Shown piece after piece: positions 13,862 to 21,404 of a DNA stretch of 64,000 bases. This DNA is from Lachnospiraceae bacterium. Lineage in GTDB: Bacteria; Bacillota; Clostridia; Lachnospirales; Lachnospiraceae. Position 1 is the first letter of the stretch, and each line of letters starts with the position of its first letter. The translations under genes and the position numbers were made by a program. Below the pieces are notes generated by a model that was not told the origin of the DNA, searched no databases, and was given only the letters and a program-made list of their open reading frames with translations. Location of the stretch: positions 104,271-168,270 of the forward strand of contig JAZQQI010000006.1 in assembly GCA_045628965.1 (NCBI GenBank), given 5' to 3'.

Positions 13862-13911
13862 CTATGGTGCTTCATAGAATATTATTGAAACAACGAAAGG
13901 AGAACAAACAA

Positions 13912-14517
13912 ATGGCAAATTTGAATACATGGTATCCGACAATCGAAGTTGAATCTGCAAAGGGAATAAGAGAAGTATCGTTAAATACGAGGCATTTGAT
14001 GAACAGATGCATTTTCCTTACGGGAGAAATTGATGCGGAGACAGCAGGAAATTTCCTCTCGGAATTGCTCTTCTTGGAAAATGAGTCCGAAGAACCGGTA
14101 ACAATATATATTAACAGCCCCGGCGGCGAAGTTGATGCAGGCCTCTTGATATACGATGCCATACAGGGGAGCAGACTTGAAATCAACACTGTATGCACAG
14201 GAAGGGCAGCGAGCATGGCGGCGTTAATATTCGCTTCGGGACGAAGAGGACGAAGATACATAATGAAACACAGTAAGGTAATGATACACGAACCGCTTAT
14301 TGCGAACGGATTCGGCGGCTCGGCATCTTCGATAAAGAACATAGCCGACAGCATATTGGAAACAAGAGAGGTGGTAAACGGAATACTTGCTGAACTTACC
14401 GGCAGAACAATCGAAGAAATAAATGAAGCGACGGTTTACGACAATCTGATGAATGCCGACGAAGCAATAGAATTCGGAATGTGCGATAAGGTAACGGATA
14501 CAATAAAGATTAAATGA
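13912..14517 (+). CDS. clpP: ClpP-family serine protease subunit (atypical, accessory copy)
   Basis: IYINSPGG, AASMAA (Ser), VMIHEP (His), YDNLMNADEA (Asp). GAAAGGAG RBS before ATG 13912. Confidence 0.9.
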   Translation: MANLNTWYPTIEVESAKGIREVSLNTRHLMNRCIFLTGEIDAETAGNFLSELLFLENESEEPVTIYINSPGGEVDAGLLIYDAIQGSRLEINTVCTGRAASMAALIFASGRRGRRYIMKHSKVMIHEPLIANGFGGSASSIKNIADSILETREVVNGILAELTGRTIEEINEATVYDNLMNADEAIEFGMCDKVTDTIKIK

Positions 14518-14530
14518 AGGGGGGATAAAA

Positions 14531-15805
14531 ATGGAAAAGAATACGATGATTTTGGGACAGGATGTTTCTTTCAGCCTCGATTGCAGGCAAACGAGACTTA
14601 ACAATAATGTTTTGGTTGTGGGAACATCGGGCGCGGGAAAAACGAGAAGCATAGTAACACCGAATCTTCTACAGGCGAGCGGAAGTTACGTAATTTCCGA
14701 CCCGAAAGGTACTCTTTATAAAAAATACAAAGCCTATCTTGAAGGCAAAGGATACACGGTCAAAAAGCTGGATTTTACAGATCCGAAAAATTCTTCTCAT
14801 TATAACTTCTTTGAATATATAAAATCCACTCAGGATATCATGAAGACTGCTCATATACTGACATACAGCAGCGAGATGAGCGGCACAAACGAAATGTTTT
14901 GGCAGGAATCCACTCAACTTCTTTTGCAGGCGGTAATGGCACTTTTGATAGAGCAGGATAATAAAAAATTACAAAATCTTCGGTATATGATGGATTTAAT
15001 CTCCAGATGCCAAATAAATGAGAATGACAGTTCGTCTGCGACACAGTTGGATTTATTGATGAAAGCTATGAAAAATAAAAATACAGACAGCTACGCGGCC
15101 AAAACTTACGAAAAATTCCGAATTGCGGCGGGCAGAACGTTAAAATCGATTCTTATATCGGCTTTTGCAACTCTTGGAAATTATGATACGCCGGAAATAA
15201 ATGCGATGACGGAATATGACGATATAGATATTCCTTCGCTGGGAAAACAAAAGACGGCAATCTTTGTAATAGTAAGCGATACGGAACGATCGATGGACGG
15301 TCTTGTCAACATATTTTACACGCAGACGATGAATGAACTTTGCAGATATGCGGATAAAGAATGCGAAGACGGCTGCCTTCCGATACCGGTGAGGTTTATA
15401 ATGGATGATTTCGCGACAAACTGCAAAATAGAAGAATTCCCGAGAATGATATCATCCATAAGGTCGCGAGGAATATCGACAATGCTTATGATTCAGGCTG
15501 AATCGCAACTTGCAAAGTGCTACGGATATGATGGCAAAACCATAATCGGAAACTGTGATACATACGTATATATGGGCGGCAACGACATTGAGACGGCGGC
15601 CTCTGTGGCGGAAAGATGCGATGTGCCGATGAAGAAAATCTTATACATGCCGGTAGGGACTGTTTGGATATTCAGGCGCGGACAAAATCCGATACAAACT
15701 TTGAACTTCGATATAGATACTTACCTTGCCGAAAAAGGTCTGAACGAAAATAAAGTAACAGAGATTGTTTGTGAAAACAGTATTTTGGAAGAGGAGCCGA
15801 GATAA
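14531..15805 (+). CDS. VirD4/TraG-like coupling-protein-family ATPase lacking the N-terminal membrane anchor
   Basis: NNVLVVGTSGAGKT, VISDPKG, PVRFIMDDF, ISSIRSRGIS, IQAESQL and IIGNCDTYVYMG; no hydrophobic N-terminal helices. Confidence 0.85.
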   Translation: MEKNTMILGQDVSFSLDCRQTRLNNNVLVVGTSGAGKTRSIVTPNLLQASGSYVISDPKGTLYKKYKAYLEGKGYTVKKLDFTDPKNSSHYNFFEYIKSTQDIMKTAHILTYSSEMSGTNEMFWQESTQLLLQAVMALLIEQDNKKLQNLRYMMDLISRCQINENDSSSATQLDLLMKAMKNKNTDSYAAKTYEKFRIAAGRTLKSILISAFATLGNYDTPEINAMTEYDDIDIPSLGKQKTAIFVIVSDTERSMDGLVNIFYTQTMNELCRYADKECEDGCLPIPVRFIMDDFATNCKIEEFPRMISSIRSRGISTMLMIQAESQLAKCYGYDGKTIIGNCDTYVYMGGNDIETAASVAERCDVPMKKILYMPVGTVWIFRRGQNPIQTLNFDIDTYLAEKGLNENKVTEIVCENSILEEEPR

Positions 15806-15900
15806 TAAAAATTGACGCAAATCACGGTGAAGTGATAAACTGTTTTTGGATAAATGACAGAAGTCAAAACAGTTGAATGTAACGTATGTATTTATCTGCA

Positions 15901-15946
15901 ATTCAAGTAATACTTGAATATAAACTTCAACCTATGACTGCTGTAA
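15901..15946 (+). promoter_or_regulatory. Palindromic operator, copy 2 (ATTCAAGTA-A-TACTTGAAT) within a duplicated leader
   Basis: Perfect 9-1-9 inverted repeat at 15901-15919; starts 96 nt before ATG 15997, the same offset as copy 1. Confidence 0.8.
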
Positions 15947-15996
15947 TCTATACGGCAAGGTCGATATACTTGAGTTGTAGAAAGGAAGTGATACGA

Positions 15997-16827
15997 ATGA
16001 GCATAGGAACAAAGATAGCAGAAAGAAGAAAAGAATTGAAAATGAGCCAGCAGGATCTGGCCGAAAAAGTCGGAGTTTCTTTCCAGGCGGTAAGCTTGTG
16101 GGAGAGAGACGAGTGCCTTCCTGAGACGGAAAGGTTACTGGAGATAGCCAAAGTGTTAAGCACTAAGGTTTCATGGATTCTGGAAGAAGAAGGTGCAGAG
16201 CCGAATCGATGGGAATTAAAAGATGCGATGTTCTCGATAGAAAATATGGAGAAGAAGGTTCGCGAGTATGCCAGAGCAAAGGGGATGAGCGAATCATTAA
16301 AGGCCTTGAAAATCGCAAAGACAAAGCATGAAGGCCAAGTCAGAAGCGGAAAAGACAAGGTTCCGTACATAATTCACCCTCTGATGCTCGCCTGCCACGC
16401 AATCGCACTGAAGGTTGACAATGATAACCTGATTGCGGTATGCCTGCTTCACGATGTCGTCGAAGACTGCGATGTAACGCTCGACGAACTCGATGTAAAC
16501 GATGAGATAAAAGAAGCGGTCGGACTTCTGACCTTCAGGGTAATCGAAGGAAAAACCAAAGAAGAATCAAAGGCGGTTTACTACGATAAAATCAAGAAAA
16601 ACAAAACGGCCTGCATGGTCAAAGTGCTCGACCGGTGCAACAATATCTCCTCGATGGCAACAAGCTTCTCAAAAGCCAAAATCGCATCCTACATAGATGA
16701 AACCGAGAAGTACGTAATGCCGCTTCTGGATGTAATCAAACATGAATACGATGACTACTACGAAGCAGCGTTCCTTGTGAAATACCAAATGAGGAGTATA
16801 CTCGAATCACTGAAAAGACTTGTGTAA
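15997..16827 (+). CDS. XRE-family HTH fused to a RelA/SpoT-type HD hydrolase (small alarmone hydrolase/Mesh1-like)
   Basis: IAERRKELKMSQQDLAEKVGVSFQAVSLWE (XRE HTH); HEGQVRSG, PYIIHP, LLHDVVED and KVLDRCNN (hydrolase motifs). RBS favours ATG 15997. Confidence 0.9.
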   Translation: MSIGTKIAERRKELKMSQQDLAEKVGVSFQAVSLWERDECLPETERLLEIAKVLSTKVSWILEEEGAEPNRWELKDAMFSIENMEKKVREYARAKGMSESLKALKIAKTKHEGQVRSGKDKVPYIIHPLMLACHAIALKVDNDNLIAVCLLHDVVEDCDVTLDELDVNDEIKEAVGLLTFRVIEGKTKEESKAVYYDKIKKNKTACMVKVLDRCNNISSMATSFSKAKIASYIDETEKYVMPLLDVIKHEYDDYYEAAFLVKYQMRSILESLKRLV

Positions 16828-16848: not shown

Positions 16849-16884
16849 AAGCAACTCAAACGATGAAGTTTGAGTTGCTTTTTT
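16849..16884. terminator. Terminator between the convergent HD-hydrolase and alarmone-synthetase genes
   Basis: AAGCAACTCAAAC-GATGAA-GTTTGAGTTGCTT, with A/T runs on the flanks. Confidence 0.8.
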
Positions 16885-17662
16885 ACCCTTCAAGAGTTCT
16901 GTTCATGTTTTCCATTTTTGCTTCTGCTTTATAAATAAGCATGCTGCATTCTTTAAGCTCCTTGTCGAAATTTGAGGTATTCTCAGAATATAATGATTTG
17001 TATTTTATGTCATGTTCGAGACTTGCCCAAAGGTCCATAGCAAGTGTTCGAATCTGAAGTTCGACGGGGACATACTGCTTTTTGTTCATGAAATAAATGG
17101 GAACGCGGATTGTCATGTGAAGACTTCTGTACCCGTTTTTCTTCGGCTCTTCTATATAGTCTTTAATTCGCATTACCTGCAAATCGTCTTGGGCAAGAAT
17201 TCGGTCACGTATGAGATAAACATCCTTTATATAAGGACAGACAACTCTTATTCCGGCAATGTCGTAGATGTTATTGCATGCGGAATTAAGAGTGAGCTCG
17301 AGATTCTTTTTTTGAAGCTTTCCCAAAATGCTTTTGGCTGATTTGAGCCTTGTATCGATGTGATGAATGGGACTTCGAAGCTTTCTGAATTCAAATTCGT
17401 CCTGAATGATTTCAAGACGGGATTTTGCTTCGCTCATTGCCGAGTTATACATAAGAAGAATCGGGTCGATTGTCTGTGAGAAGATTTCGTCCATATCGAC
17501 CAAATCTTCCATGTTTCCGTGTGTTCCTGAAGCGGGGACGATACTGTAAATTTCAATTGTATCATCGGACGTTAACTCGATGGCCTCTTCGGCTTCATCG
17601 GATATTATTTCTATTTGTTTTGTTTCTTTGTAAACTGTTTTTTCTTTCTTTTTAAAATTCAA
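16883..17662 (-). CDS. Small alarmone synthetase (RelP/RelQ-like GTP pyrophosphokinase)
   Basis: RLKSAKSILGK, DIAGIRVV, KDYIEEPKKNGYRSLH and ELQIRTLAMDLWASLEHDIKYK. TTG at 17662 chosen from GAGG spacing; the start is uncertain. Confidence 0.92.
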   Translation of the reverse strand: MNFKKKEKTVYKETKQIEIISDEAEEAIELTSDDTIEIYSIVPASGTHGNMEDLVDMDEIFSQTIDPILLMYNSAMSEAKSRLEIIQDEFEFRKLRSPIHHIDTRLKSAKSILGKLQKKNLELTLNSACNNIYDIAGIRVVCPYIKDVYLIRDRILAQDDLQVMRIKDYIEEPKKNGYRSLHMTIRVPIYFMNKKQYVPVELQIRTLAMDLWASLEHDIKYKSLYSENTSNFDKELKECSMLIYKAEAKMENMNRTLEG

Positions 17663-17693
17663 AATAACTAACCTCACAAATCAAGATATCGAT

Positions 17694-17722
17694 ATGATAG
17701 CACATATTGTTAGCACTCACAA
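17694..17722 (-). promoter_or_regulatory. SigA-type promoter for the alarmone synthetase
   Basis: Minus strand TTGTGA (17722-17717), 17 nt, TG-extended TATCAT (17699-17694). Confidence 0.6.
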
Positions 17723-17736
17723 TAGACGAGTGCTAA
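17710..17736. promoter_or_regulatory. CIRCE element (HrcA operator)
   Basis: Exact TTAGCACTC-N9-GAGTGCTAA. Confidence 0.92.
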
Positions 17737-17773
17737 AATTTACAAATTGTTCATATGTTTTTCGGGAGAAGAG

Positions 17774-17838
17774 TGCGTAAAATGTTTCCTAAAATGCGTA
17801 ATTTAACCTTTATTAAAAAAAAATTCATATGTTATAAT
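17774..17838 (+). promoter_or_regulatory. TGCGTAA-N14-TGCGTAA direct repeat plus extended -10, upstream of the EAL gene
   Basis: Repeats at 17774 and 17795; TGTTATAAT with -10 at 17833. Confidence 0.65.
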
Positions 17839-17876: not shown

Positions 17877-19745
17877 ATGAATATTCAGGTTCAGCTTTGC
17901 GGACTGATTGTCATATTTTTAATAATGCTTTTCTATTACGGAAATAAGAAAATAGGCCTTTTTACGGAGGCTGTTTTTACTCGTGCTCTGAGCGGTTCTT
18001 TTATCTGTCTATGTCTTGACATTCTGTCGGTTGTAATGATTGTTTACAGTGCAACGATTCCGGATTTTTGGGTAAAAGTTGTTTGTAAAGCGTACCTTGT
18101 GTCTCTTCTTTGGATGGGTTTTGCAGGATTTGATTATGAGATGACAGAACTTGTTACTGAGGCGAGATACCATAGACTGATTCGTATTTTTATGCTTCTC
18201 GGTGCAATTGAGTCGCTTGTTATTTTTCTTGCTCCGATCAATTATTTCCTCGACGGAGAGGTTGTTTACAGCTACGGACTCAGTACAACGCTCACTTATA
18301 TTTTCACGCTTATCTATATTTTATGCACGGTAGTTATTCTTTTTGTTCAAAGAAAAGTTATAAACAGCAGAAGACGTACCGCTACAACCATTTGGATGAT
18401 ACTTTGGTTTTCGTCAGCACTGACTCAGTTCTTCTTTAACGAACTTCTTCTTGTCGGCTTTGCGATTTCCATGGGAATGCTTACGATTTTTATTATGCTG
18501 GAGAACCCCGAGGCAATGCAGGACAGACGTATCGGATGCTTTAACTCGCATGCGCTTTTGATGTTTTTAAAGCAGACATACGAAAGAAAAGAGTCTTACG
18601 GTGTAATGGATATTCTTATCGAGTCGGCTGATTCGGAGAATGATTCCATGATAAAATCCGATGTTGTATTTGCCGCAGTATTTGAATATTTTGAAAATAG
18701 GAAGGGATATTCCGTATTTAAAAATGTTGATGATGAACTTTTGATTTTCACAAAGAGAAAAGACAATCTTAAAATCGAAAAAGAATTTGAAGATTTTTAC
18801 AATAAAAAAATCGCATCGAAGTACAATACTGACGTCAAAATAATAGTGCTTGACGATACCAATAAGGTTAAAAATTATGATGACCTTTTTGCAATATTGA
18901 AGATGTCTGCGATAAATGTTTCGGCTCAAAGCGAGTATGCGCGTTTTACTTTGGGAGAAGAGGCCGTAAATAAATATTACAGATATCACGAAGTTGTAAA
19001 AGAGATAGAACTTGCTCTTTCGGAAGATCGTGTGGAGGTGTTTTATCAGCCGATTTATTCGAATGCGAAAGAAAGATATGTTTCGTGTGAAGCCCTTGCG
19101 AGAATCAGAAGAAAGGACGGAACGCTTCTTTCGCCGGGAGAGTTTATTCCGGTTGCGGAGGACTCGGGTCTTATAGTTCAACTTGGAGAAAGAGTATTCA
19201 CTAAAGTTTGCCAATTCCTGAATATTAATCAGAATATAAAAAACATGTTGGATTATGTTGAAGTAAACCTTTCTGTGGCGCAGTTCGAAGAAGATAATCT
19301 CGCTGATAAGTTCATTAGAATTATGCAGAAATATGATATCGAACCTCATAAAATCAACCTTGAGATTACAGAAACGGCTTCGATTCAGACCAAAAAGATG
19401 CTTCTTGAAAATATGAACAGGTTTATCGATTACGGAGTAAAGTTTTCGCTTGATGATTTCGGTAAGGGCGAATCAAATCTTATGTACGTTGTGGAAATGC
19501 CTGTTTCCATTGTTAAGTTGGATATGGATATGACTAAGGCATATTTCGTTGAGCCTAAGGCAAAATGTGTTGTGGCAGCTACGGTAAGAATGGCACATGA
19601 ACTCGGTCTACATGTTGTAGCAGAGGGAGTTGAAGACAAAGACGAACTTTCCGCCATGAGAGAAGAAAAAATAGATTTCATTCAGGGTTATTATTTCTCA
19701 AAACCGGTAAAAGAATCGGATTTCATAAAAATGCTTACATTATAA
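17877..19745 (+). CDS. Membrane-bound EAL-domain c-di-GMP phosphodiesterase (multi-TM N-terminus, degenerate GGDEF)
   Basis: About seven N-terminal TM segments; YQPIY, CEALARI, NLSVAQF, LEITE, LDDFGKG and AEGVE. Confidence 0.9.
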   Translation: MNIQVQLCGLIVIFLIMLFYYGNKKIGLFTEAVFTRALSGSFICLCLDILSVVMIVYSATIPDFWVKVVCKAYLVSLLWMGFAGFDYEMTELVTEARYHRLIRIFMLLGAIESLVIFLAPINYFLDGEVVYSYGLSTTLTYIFTLIYILCTVVILFVQRKVINSRRRTATTIWMILWFSSALTQFFFNELLLVGFAISMGMLTIFIMLENPEAMQDRRIGCFNSHALLMFLKQTYERKESYGVMDILIESADSENDSMIKSDVVFAAVFEYFENRKGYSVFKNVDDELLIFTKRKDNLKIEKEFEDFYNKKIASKYNTDVKIIVLDDTNKVKNYDDLFAILKMSAINVSAQSEYARFTLGEEAVNKYYRYHEVVKEIELALSEDRVEVFYQPIYSNAKERYVSCEALARIRRKDGTLLSPGEFIPVAEDSGLIVQLGERVFTKVCQFLNINQNIKNMLDYVEVNLSVAQFEEDNLADKFIRIMQKYDIEPHKINLEITETASIQTKKMLLENMNRFIDYGVKFSLDDFGKGESNLMYVVEMPVSIVKLDMDMTKAYFVEPKAKCVVAATVRMAHELGLHVVAEGVEDKDELSAMREEKIDFIQGYYFSKPVKESDFIKMLTL

Positions 19746-19789: not shown

Positions 19790-21404
19790 CAGACTGCAGA
19801 CAAACCCCTTTTCAAAACGAGATGTTTTTGAAGAGGGGTTCATTTTTTGAGATTTTATGCGATTTTGATGACTATAAATCGCGAAAAGTCAAATAAGTGC
19901 GATATATGGGTGCCTATTAGCCCCATTCTTTTCTTAATTCTTGCCATTTTTTTAAGATTCATGCACGCAAATGTGAGCCCGACTTTCATTTCCATTCGGG
20001 CTTTTCCTATCATATTTGTGTATCTGAATCCATGTGCTTCTTTAGCAGTTCCAAACAACCTTTCAATTGTTTCTTTTCGCTTGGAATAAAGTTCCTTCAT
20101 TCCCTCTGTATAGCGAATATCTTCTGCCATTTCCATGTATTCTTCCCAGACATGTCTTGTGACTACTTTGACATGATTCTTTGATTCCGTACATTGATTA
20201 AGATAAGGACATTTCTCACAGATTTCCGCGCAGCTTTTATACTCTTTATAACCTTCCTTGTTAGTTGTTGTATATTTTAGGATTTCATCATTGGGGCATA
20301 TATAGCAATCATAGTATTCATCATAAACGTATTCATATTTTTTAAAGAACCCTTCTTTAGTCATTGGTCTTTTATACGGGAAGAGAGGTGTCTTACCATC
20401 ATCTATGATTGTTTTGGCTATCGCCGGTGTTTTATATCCTGCATCTGCAATGATTGTTTCACAATCAAGATTTCGTATCTTTTCATAGATGGCAGGAAAT
20501 GTTCTGCTGTCATGTTCATTACCTGGATGAACTGTATATCCTAAAATCCATCCGTATTTATCGCAGGCGGTTTCTACTGCGTATGCGAATACCTGTTTAT
20601 GTTCTCCTTTATGAAACCATCCGCTTTCGGGATCTGTTGTACTTACCTTTATTTCCTTTCCGCCTGATGCTCCGCCTTTGTTATTATCATCGTCATCGTC
20701 ATCATCTTTATCTTTAAGAGGTTTCTTGCCATGAAGTTCACGGTCTTCGTTTATCTCTTTTTTTAACAACTCTTCATAAAAAAGGGCTTCTTCTTTGGCG
20801 AATTGTTTCTCCATCTTTTTATTGTTTGCACATGCTTTCACATGAGTGGCATCAATAAATATCTCTTTGGGATCAACAAGATTTAACTTATAGCATTCCT
20901 CAAGAATACGTGCAAAAATCTGTTCAAACAGATCCGTATCTTTAAATCTTCTTGTATAGTTTTTTCCAAAGGTGGTGAAGTGGGGAACTCTGTCGGTAAG
21001 ACCAATACCGAGGAACCAGCGAAAAGCGACATTTACTTCGATTTCTTTCATTGTCTGTCGCATAGAGCGTATACCATAAAGGTATTGAATAAAAGGTATT
21101 TTAATAAGCGTTACCGGATCCATACTTGGACGGCCGTTATTCGGACAATACTTCTCTTCTACAAGATCGTATATGAAAGTCCAGTCAATCGCTTCATCTA
21201 TAAGACGAAGCAGATGATCTTGAGGAACCAATTCGTCTGTACAAAACATCTGAAGCTGACTTCTGTTCTTGTCAGTATTCTGAGTCATCATAAGCAATAC
21301 CCTCCATGACTCTATTATACCACAAAAGTGCCTATTTTACGCGGTTTTTAAGCAATTTCAAAAGAAAAATCCACGGAAAATCCGTGGACTTTGTCTTCAC
21401 TCTG
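19790..21404 (-). mobile_element. IS1182-family insertion sequence, apparently intact (1615 bp)
   Basis: Terminal IRs CAGACTGCAGACAAA / CAGAGTGAAGACAAA (13/15); flanked by a 25-bp direct repeat; single transposase ORF. Confidence 0.9.
19855..21291 (-). CDS. IS1182-family DDE transposase
   Basis: DELVPQDHLLRLID, GRPSMDP, FRWFLG, IFIDATH, ADAGY and RKETIERLFG motifs. Confidence 0.92.
   Translation of the reverse strand: MMTQNTDKNRSQLQMFCTDELVPQDHLLRLIDEAIDWTFIYDLVEEKYCPNNGRPSMDPVTLIKIPFIQYLYGIRSMRQTMKEIEVNVAFRWFLGIGLTDRVPHFTTFGKNYTRRFKDTDLFEQIFARILEECYKLNLVDPKEIFIDATHVKACANNKKMEKQFAKEEALFYEELLKKEINEDRELHGKKPLKDKDDDDDDDNNKGGASGGKEIKVSTTDPESGWFHKGEHKQVFAYAVETACDKYGWILGYTVHPGNEHDSRTFPAIYEKIRNLDCETIIADAGYKTPAIAKTIIDDGKTPLFPYKRPMTKEGFFKKYEYVYDEYYDCYICPNDEILKYTTTNKEGYKEYKSCAEICEKCPYLNQCTESKNHVKVVTRHVWEEYMEMAEDIRYTEGMKELYSKRKETIERLFGTAKEAHGFRYTNMIGKARMEMKVGLTFACMNLKKMARIKKRMGLIGTHISHLFDFSRFIVIKIA

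Follow-up and report, generated by a model that had tools for sequence, protein, structure and literature searches.

The regulons of HrcA are considered to be small and to consist almost wholly of chaperone genes. Their response to stress is described by the GroE-titration model, in which unfolded proteins inactivate HrcA (summarised in PMC10212131). RelP (YwaC/SasA) of B. subtilis and S. aureus is induced at the level of transcription by cell-envelope stress (PMC10212131 and references therein). Ribosome-bound Rel produces the (p)ppGpp that B. subtilis accumulates on heating, a response for which neither RelP nor RelQ is needed (Schaefer et al. 2020, PMC7098656). There is thus no experimental precedent for a small alarmone synthetase (SAS) as a heat-shock effector, and a search of open-access papers returned no report of an SAS or RelP under HrcA control.

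The locus described here, from a Lachnospiraceae bacterium, places a CIRCE element on the promoter of a RelP-type SAS gene. It resembles the classical CIRCE/HrcA system (1997, cited in PMC10212131), as far as that system is outlined in the citing paper, in its identical 9-N9-9 operator, in an hrcA gene autoregulated through the same element, in its sigma-A-type promoter and, presumably, in its logic, with a repressor that is inactivated when GroE is titrated. It departs from the same outline in its target, which is a nucleotide-second-messenger synthetase and not a chaperone or protease; in the position of the operator, which lies over the −35 element rather than between the transcription start and the start codon; and in the groESL operon, which has lost its CIRCE in this genome, whereas clpB and htpG carry one. 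Like RelP (YwaC/SasA), the enzyme is a single-domain synthetase whose response to stress would reside in its transcription instead of in a sensor domain. Unlike RelP, it carries at its N-terminus a variable acidic extension of ~50 aa, and its proposed regulator is HrcA acting through CIRCE in proteotoxic stress, not the envelope-stress regulators. With the heat-induced (p)ppGpp pulse of B. subtilis the proposed circuit shares a tie between heat or folding stress, alarmone accumulation and down-regulation of translation; that pulse is made by Rel (PMC7098656), whereas the link proposed here would be hard-wired at transcription of the SAS gene.

The sequence analyzed (the window) is a stretch of 64,000 nt, positions 104,271–168,270 of the forward strand of contig JAZQQI010000006.1, in an assembly (GCA_045628965.1) of 2.2 Mb with 39% G+C. 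Positions 17710–17736 read TTAGCACTCACAATAGACGAGTGCTAA, a predicted HrcA operator that matches TTAGCACTC-N9-GAGTGCTAA with 0 mismatches (with its spacer written out, TTAGCACTC-ACAATAGAC-GAGTGCTAA). None of 100 dinucleotide-preserving shuffles contained a CIRCE match, with up to 3 mismatches allowed. The element lies in a 199-nt gap that separates two divergent genes. The minus-strand gene (16883–17662, with an alternative 5′ end at 17677) encodes the SAS, recognized by its RelA_SpoT domain, and the plus-strand gene (17877–19745) encodes an EAL-domain protein with multiple membrane passes. An IS transposase gene (DDE_Tnp_1_6/DUF772; 19855–21297, minus strand) sits between the EAL gene and the genes for a 133-aa protein and a TetR protein; it is missing from the corresponding place in the related loci L116–L120. 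An earlier note on this DNA had reported an exact CIRCE over the −35 (TTGTGA) of a minus-strand promoter facing the SAS gene, no chaperone gene adjoining it, and ClpP and an alarmone hydrolase next door. This description agrees with the layout found here, in which the CIRCE covers a −35 at 17722–17717, and a ClpP-like gene (13864–14517) and an XRE-HTH/HD fusion gene (15886–16827) lie close by. The range that the note gave, 17694–17736, comprises the CIRCE plus the −10.

The predicted SAS promoter is sigma-A-type and reads on the minus strand, toward the gene with the RelA_SpoT domain. Its −35 hexamer (TTGTGA, 17717–17722, located by consensus scan) corresponds to CIRCE positions 15–20, that is, the last four spacer bases and the first two bases of the right arm. 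A spacer of 17 nt leads to an extended −10, TGcTATCAT (17694–17702), with the TG at 17702–17701 and the hexamer TATCAT at 17699–17694. The consensus score is 9/12 plus the TG, and the scanned region held 7 comparable matches against 4.6 expected; the case for this promoter rests on its conservation, described below. We infer a transcription start near 17687, relative to which CIRCE would span approximately −49 to −23 (with the −10 placed at −12 to −7). A ribosome-binding site, GAGG (17672–17675, minus strand), precedes by 9 nt a TTG codon at 17662 that is the likely start of SAS. The TTG start, the GAGG and an N-terminus of MNFKKK or MKFKKK are kept in L116–L123 and L131.

Directly upstream of CIRCE on the minus strand is a block, ATGAACAATTTGTAAAT (17738–17754), that is present in 6 of the 10 lineages in which CIRCE precedes SAS (the window genome, L116, L120, L121, L131 and L124), including some with unrelated neighbours; it is not conserved in L133, L036, L041 or L136. 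The block occurs nowhere else in the genome and may be an UP-like element or the site of a second regulator. The conserved block ATGAACAWTYTGTRAAT was considered as a dispersed regulator site and discarded, having a single occurrence in the genome. A promoter located upstream of CIRCE would leave the element in the 5′ UTR, the arrangement at hrcA; it was also rejected, there being no conserved −35/−10 pair in that position.

The SAS protein has 259 aa and a single Pfam match, RelA_SpoT (PF04607, 113.7 bits against a cut-off of 27); HD hydrolase, TGS and ACT domains are absent. Among solved structures it scores highest against S. aureus RelP (6EWZ/6FGJ, 178 bits), followed by B. subtilis YwaC (6FGK, 153 bits). 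The match to YjbM/RelQ, at 113 bits, falls below these, and the score of 141 bits against the NCBIfam YjbM equivalog is under its cut-off of 320. The synthetase motifs DIAGIRVV, GYRSLH, ELQIRT and W..LEH are intact, as judged from an alignment with 6EWZ and from an alignment of 15 sequences. By these criteria the protein is an ordinary RelP-type enzyme, a predicted (p)ppGpp/pGpp synthetase that is nearer to RelP than to RelQ. RelP-type enzymes are regulated chiefly through their abundance, which fits transcriptional gating of the SAS gene. The genome also encodes a long Rel (contig C3) and a second RelP-like SAS.

The repressor needed for such gating is present. An intact hrcA (a 342-aa ORF on contig C48; TIGR00331, 321.6 bits against a cut-off of 197) is followed by grpE. 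The 2.2-Mb genome contains four exact CIRCEs, at SAS, hrcA-grpE, clpB and htpG; the fifth-best match has 4 mismatches, with nothing between 0 and 4. Apart from the SAS promoter, then, the element is reserved for heat-shock genes. At hrcA-grpE the element lies 25 nt before hrcA. At clpB, the −35 (TTGACG) is shared between the spacer and the right arm of CIRCE, with its register shifted by one base relative to SAS. An undoubted heat-shock gene of this genome thus uses an architecture with the −35 inside CIRCE, as read from the sequence. The SAS promoter may have been copied from the clpB promoter, but besides the shift in register the two spacers are unrelated. The htpG CIRCE (G000:C18:37561-37587) directly follows the stop codon of a PrsA/SurA-like gene and lies immediately upstream of the −35 of its promoter (TTGACT-17-TATAAT), not over or after the promoter, which makes a third operator geometry within one genome.

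The regulon is atypical in this genome. Genes for groES/EL, the classical partner of HrcA, are present, with no CIRCE in the operon or in ~200 nt upstream of it (G000:C15:9492-9767, groES on the minus strand), even when 5 mismatches were allowed. A CIRCE before groES is kept in 7 of 23 sampled genomes of the genus (loci L005 and L138–L159). The groESL promoter region of the present genome reads TTGAAA-17-TGtTAAAAT and is overlapped by two perfect 6-bp palindromes, GAAACA-AAAA-TGTTTC and TTCTAT-GTTAAA-ATAGAA, an arrangement that suggests that control of groESL has been taken over by another regulator.

Orthologues of the SAS were then compared. Within 24 genomes of the same genus there was none above 45% identity; the matches were paralogues of 41–43% identity, of the type found on contig C35 of the window genome, and none had a CIRCE. 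The close relatives that a protein search located came from metagenome assemblies and Roseburia-like Lachnospiraceae. Scanning metagenomes with the single SAS protein gave six Roseburia-type loci at 70% identity, all lacking CIRCE. In total, CIRCE with 0 or 1 mismatch and in the same register was found upstream of 10 distinct SAS orthologues: that of the window, P0002 (L116–L119), P0003 (L120), P0004 (L121–L123), P0006 (L124), P0007 (L131), P0008 (L136), P0011 (L133), L036 and L041. Two of these, L036 and L041, came from the 80 best species-level orthologue loci of the genome collection, and the remainder are on metagenome contigs. The trait is phylogenetically narrow. Three Roseburia-type loci (L075:3799, L086:3834 from Roseburia lenta, and L087:3743) have an SAS gene without an upstream CIRCE, directly followed by a CIRCE-controlled Hsp20 gene; this adjacency is a second, looser tie of the SAS family to heat-shock genes.

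The ten orthologues with CIRCE occupy about seven different neighbourhoods, some without an EAL gene and one without the atp operon. In the window and L116–L120, atpC lies downstream and the EAL gene is divergent upstream. L121–L123 also have atpC downstream and no EAL gene; a same-strand gene for a 126-aa protein and a terminator lie upstream. Elsewhere the SAS gene is found with DUF6062 and holA (L124), beside an unrelated divergent gene (L131), with TraX and a DtxR-like gene (L136), with a 4HBT thioesterase and serS (L133 and L036), or in a further, different setting (L041). The sole constant partner of CIRCE across these contexts is the SAS gene.

A maximum-likelihood tree was calculated from 90 SAS cores (89 orthologues, with the C35 paralogue as outgroup). 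The ten CIRCE-bearing sequences form one clade (support 100/99) inside which there is no loss of the element, and all 79 orthologues outside the clade lack it. A single change accounts for the distribution of CIRCE on the tree, and none of 500 label shuffles gave so low a number. Conservation of CIRCE ahead of SAS orthologues, which the earlier note had proposed as a check, was therefore observed in 10 orthologues and about seven contexts, all within one clade.

The ten upstream regions were anchored on CIRCE, and mean pairwise identity was calculated for each segment. The left and right arms gave 0.98 and 0.93, respectively, and spacer bases 10–14 gave 0.44. Identity was 0.72 for the −35 hexamer and 0.76 for the TGnTATnnT stretch; it was 0.29 in the 21–60 nt upstream of CIRCE and 0.38 in the 17–56 nt downstream. 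The promoter geometry, with the −35 at CIRCE positions 15–20 followed after 17 nt by a TG-extended −10 (TG-n-TAT--T), is fixed in 10/10 lineages. Besides TTGTGA, the −35 occurs among the CIRCE-bearing orthologues as TTGCGA, TTGAGA, TTGAAA, TGGACA and ATGACA. Of the five arm substitutions, four affect a base that the two elements share, first in the right arm and fifth in the −35, and replace its G by C or A. These four shift the −35 toward TTGACA (TGGACA, ATGACA and TTGAAA) at the cost of one operator mismatch. This pattern suggests a trade-off between promoter and operator, with both functions selected in the same bases.

These comparisons bear on which gene the operator serves. The other face of the palindrome presents a plus-strand promoter (TTAGCA-18-TAAAAT, 17710–17739) that scores 9/12 with a TG in the scan, and the EAL gene is the divergent neighbour in the window genome, L116–L119 and L120. 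CIRCE might then control this c-di-GMP phosphodiesterase gene, alone or together with SAS, and the TAAAAT-like bases beside the arm are indeed conserved. Those A/T-rich bases are present, however, also in L121, where only a terminator lies upstream. The EAL gene moreover has a better promoter of its own, in the region 17774–17838, which combines two boxes (TGCGTAA-N14-TGCGTAA) with an extended −10, TGTTATAAT (17830–17838), about 95 nt away. Both boxes come and go with the EAL gene, being conserved in L116 and L120, where the gene is found, and absent in L121–L123, where it is not. At least seven loci carry CIRCE without any EAL gene. The earlier note had named service to the EAL gene as an outcome that would count against its proposal; CIRCE is instead kept in the EAL-less L121–L123, L124, L131, L136, L133, L036 and L041. 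The retention of CIRCE with SAS across contexts, and the 93–98% identity of its arms against 29–38% in the flanks, argue that the operator belongs to SAS and not to EAL, and we regard control of the EAL gene as very unlikely. A broader role had been suggested by the genes on the other side of SAS, which the earlier note joined with it in a “proteostasis-alarmone hub” of ClpP and a small alarmone hydrolase (SAH). CIRCE would then be the stress input either of such a hub or of a toxSAS/antitoxin pair. The genes are adjacent in the window genome. The HD domain retains its HD motif (LLHDVVED) and is matched by the hydrolase portion of RelA/SpoT models; hydrolases serve as antitoxins in known toxSAS systems. 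Yet the SAS and HTH-HD genes are convergent and not co-transcribed, and the SAS is an ordinary RelP-type enzyme. The ClpP-like, VirD4/TraG-like ATPase and XRE-HTH/HD genes form a block (13864–16827) that puts 3.2 kb between atpC and SAS in the window. In the syntenic relatives L116–L122, whose SAS proteins are 83–90% identical, the whole block is absent; atpG-atpD-atpC is followed by the convergent SAS, with which atpC shares a terminator region of 23–58 nt. Neither SAH nor ClpP genes were found in the remaining contexts of CIRCE-bearing SAS genes. The block thus appears specific to the window genome and is most simply read as a 3.2-kb insertion, which makes its adjacency to SAS incidental. 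A toxSAS toxin-antitoxin module was discarded on the same grounds, the HTH-HD gene being convergent and absent from all related loci, and the hub is, in our judgement, extremely unlikely.

The element could also be an inert relic, a copy of a chaperone promoter carried in by recombination or horizontal transfer that is unbound and leaves SAS expression unaffected. The SAS lineage has a patchy distribution and is apparently mobile between contexts, its sister orthologues in Roseburia work without CIRCE, and loci of the Roseburia lenta type, with a CIRCE-driven hsp20 right behind SAS, would have offered raw material nearby. A relic would be expected to decay. Its arms are nevertheless 93–98% identical among loci that show up to ~30% divergence in the SAS protein and near-random flanks, it has not been lost once inside the clade, and its register to the −35 and −10 is fixed. 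The host, furthermore, has hrcA and uses the identical sequence at the hrcA operon. We consider a relic very unlikely. Positions 17710–17736 are, in our assessment, probably a working HrcA operator of the RelP-type SAS promoter.

On the preferred reading, that HrcA represses SAS, GroE-activated HrcA would occupy the palindrome (approximately −49 to −23) in the absence of stress, excluding sigma region 4 and the alpha C-terminal domains. RNA polymerase would be kept off the −35 and the sequence upstream of it, and SAS would be silent. Titration of the chaperonin by unfolded proteins would deprive HrcA of its DNA-binding activity, and SAS would then be transcribed at the same time as dnaK, clpB and htpG. 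Newly made enzyme would raise (p)ppGpp/pGpp, slowing translation and growth and lowering the load of nascent protein. The CIRCE-SAS link would have arisen once, in one Lachnospiraceae lineage of SAS, and been retained since, adding a stress-specific source of alarmone beside the long Rel and the second RelP-like SAS. The comparative evidence thus points to protein-folding stress as what probably switches on alarmone synthesis directly in this bacterium and its close relatives. We lean, with less assurance, toward the fuller proposal that HrcA directly gates a RelP-type SAS, passing an unfolded-protein signal to (p)ppGpp/pGpp without ribosome-bound Rel, and that the enzyme is a dedicated heat-shock synthetase of a gut Lachnospiraceae lineage. 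The earlier note had proposed that (p)ppGpp synthesis is wired to the unfolded-protein response. The CIRCE on the SAS promoter, the intact hrcA and the conservation of the element favour that part of its claim; the hub did not survive the comparison with related loci.

We know of no transcriptional wiring between heat shock and (p)ppGpp. The SAS gene is, with good confidence, a non-chaperone target of HrcA/CIRCE that produces a second messenger, a link well supported by the comparative evidence. If this is true, the HrcA regulon counts the messenger of the stringent response among its genuine outputs, and the conserved CIRCE on the SAS promoter would couple proteostasis sensing directly, at the genetic level, to the alarmone system. 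The promoter, ~60 bp in length and with its trade-off between −35 and operator, would be a compact natural example of repression tuned against promoter strength. Such a link would also help to explain why a bacterium has several small synthetases, each of which possibly reports a different stress.
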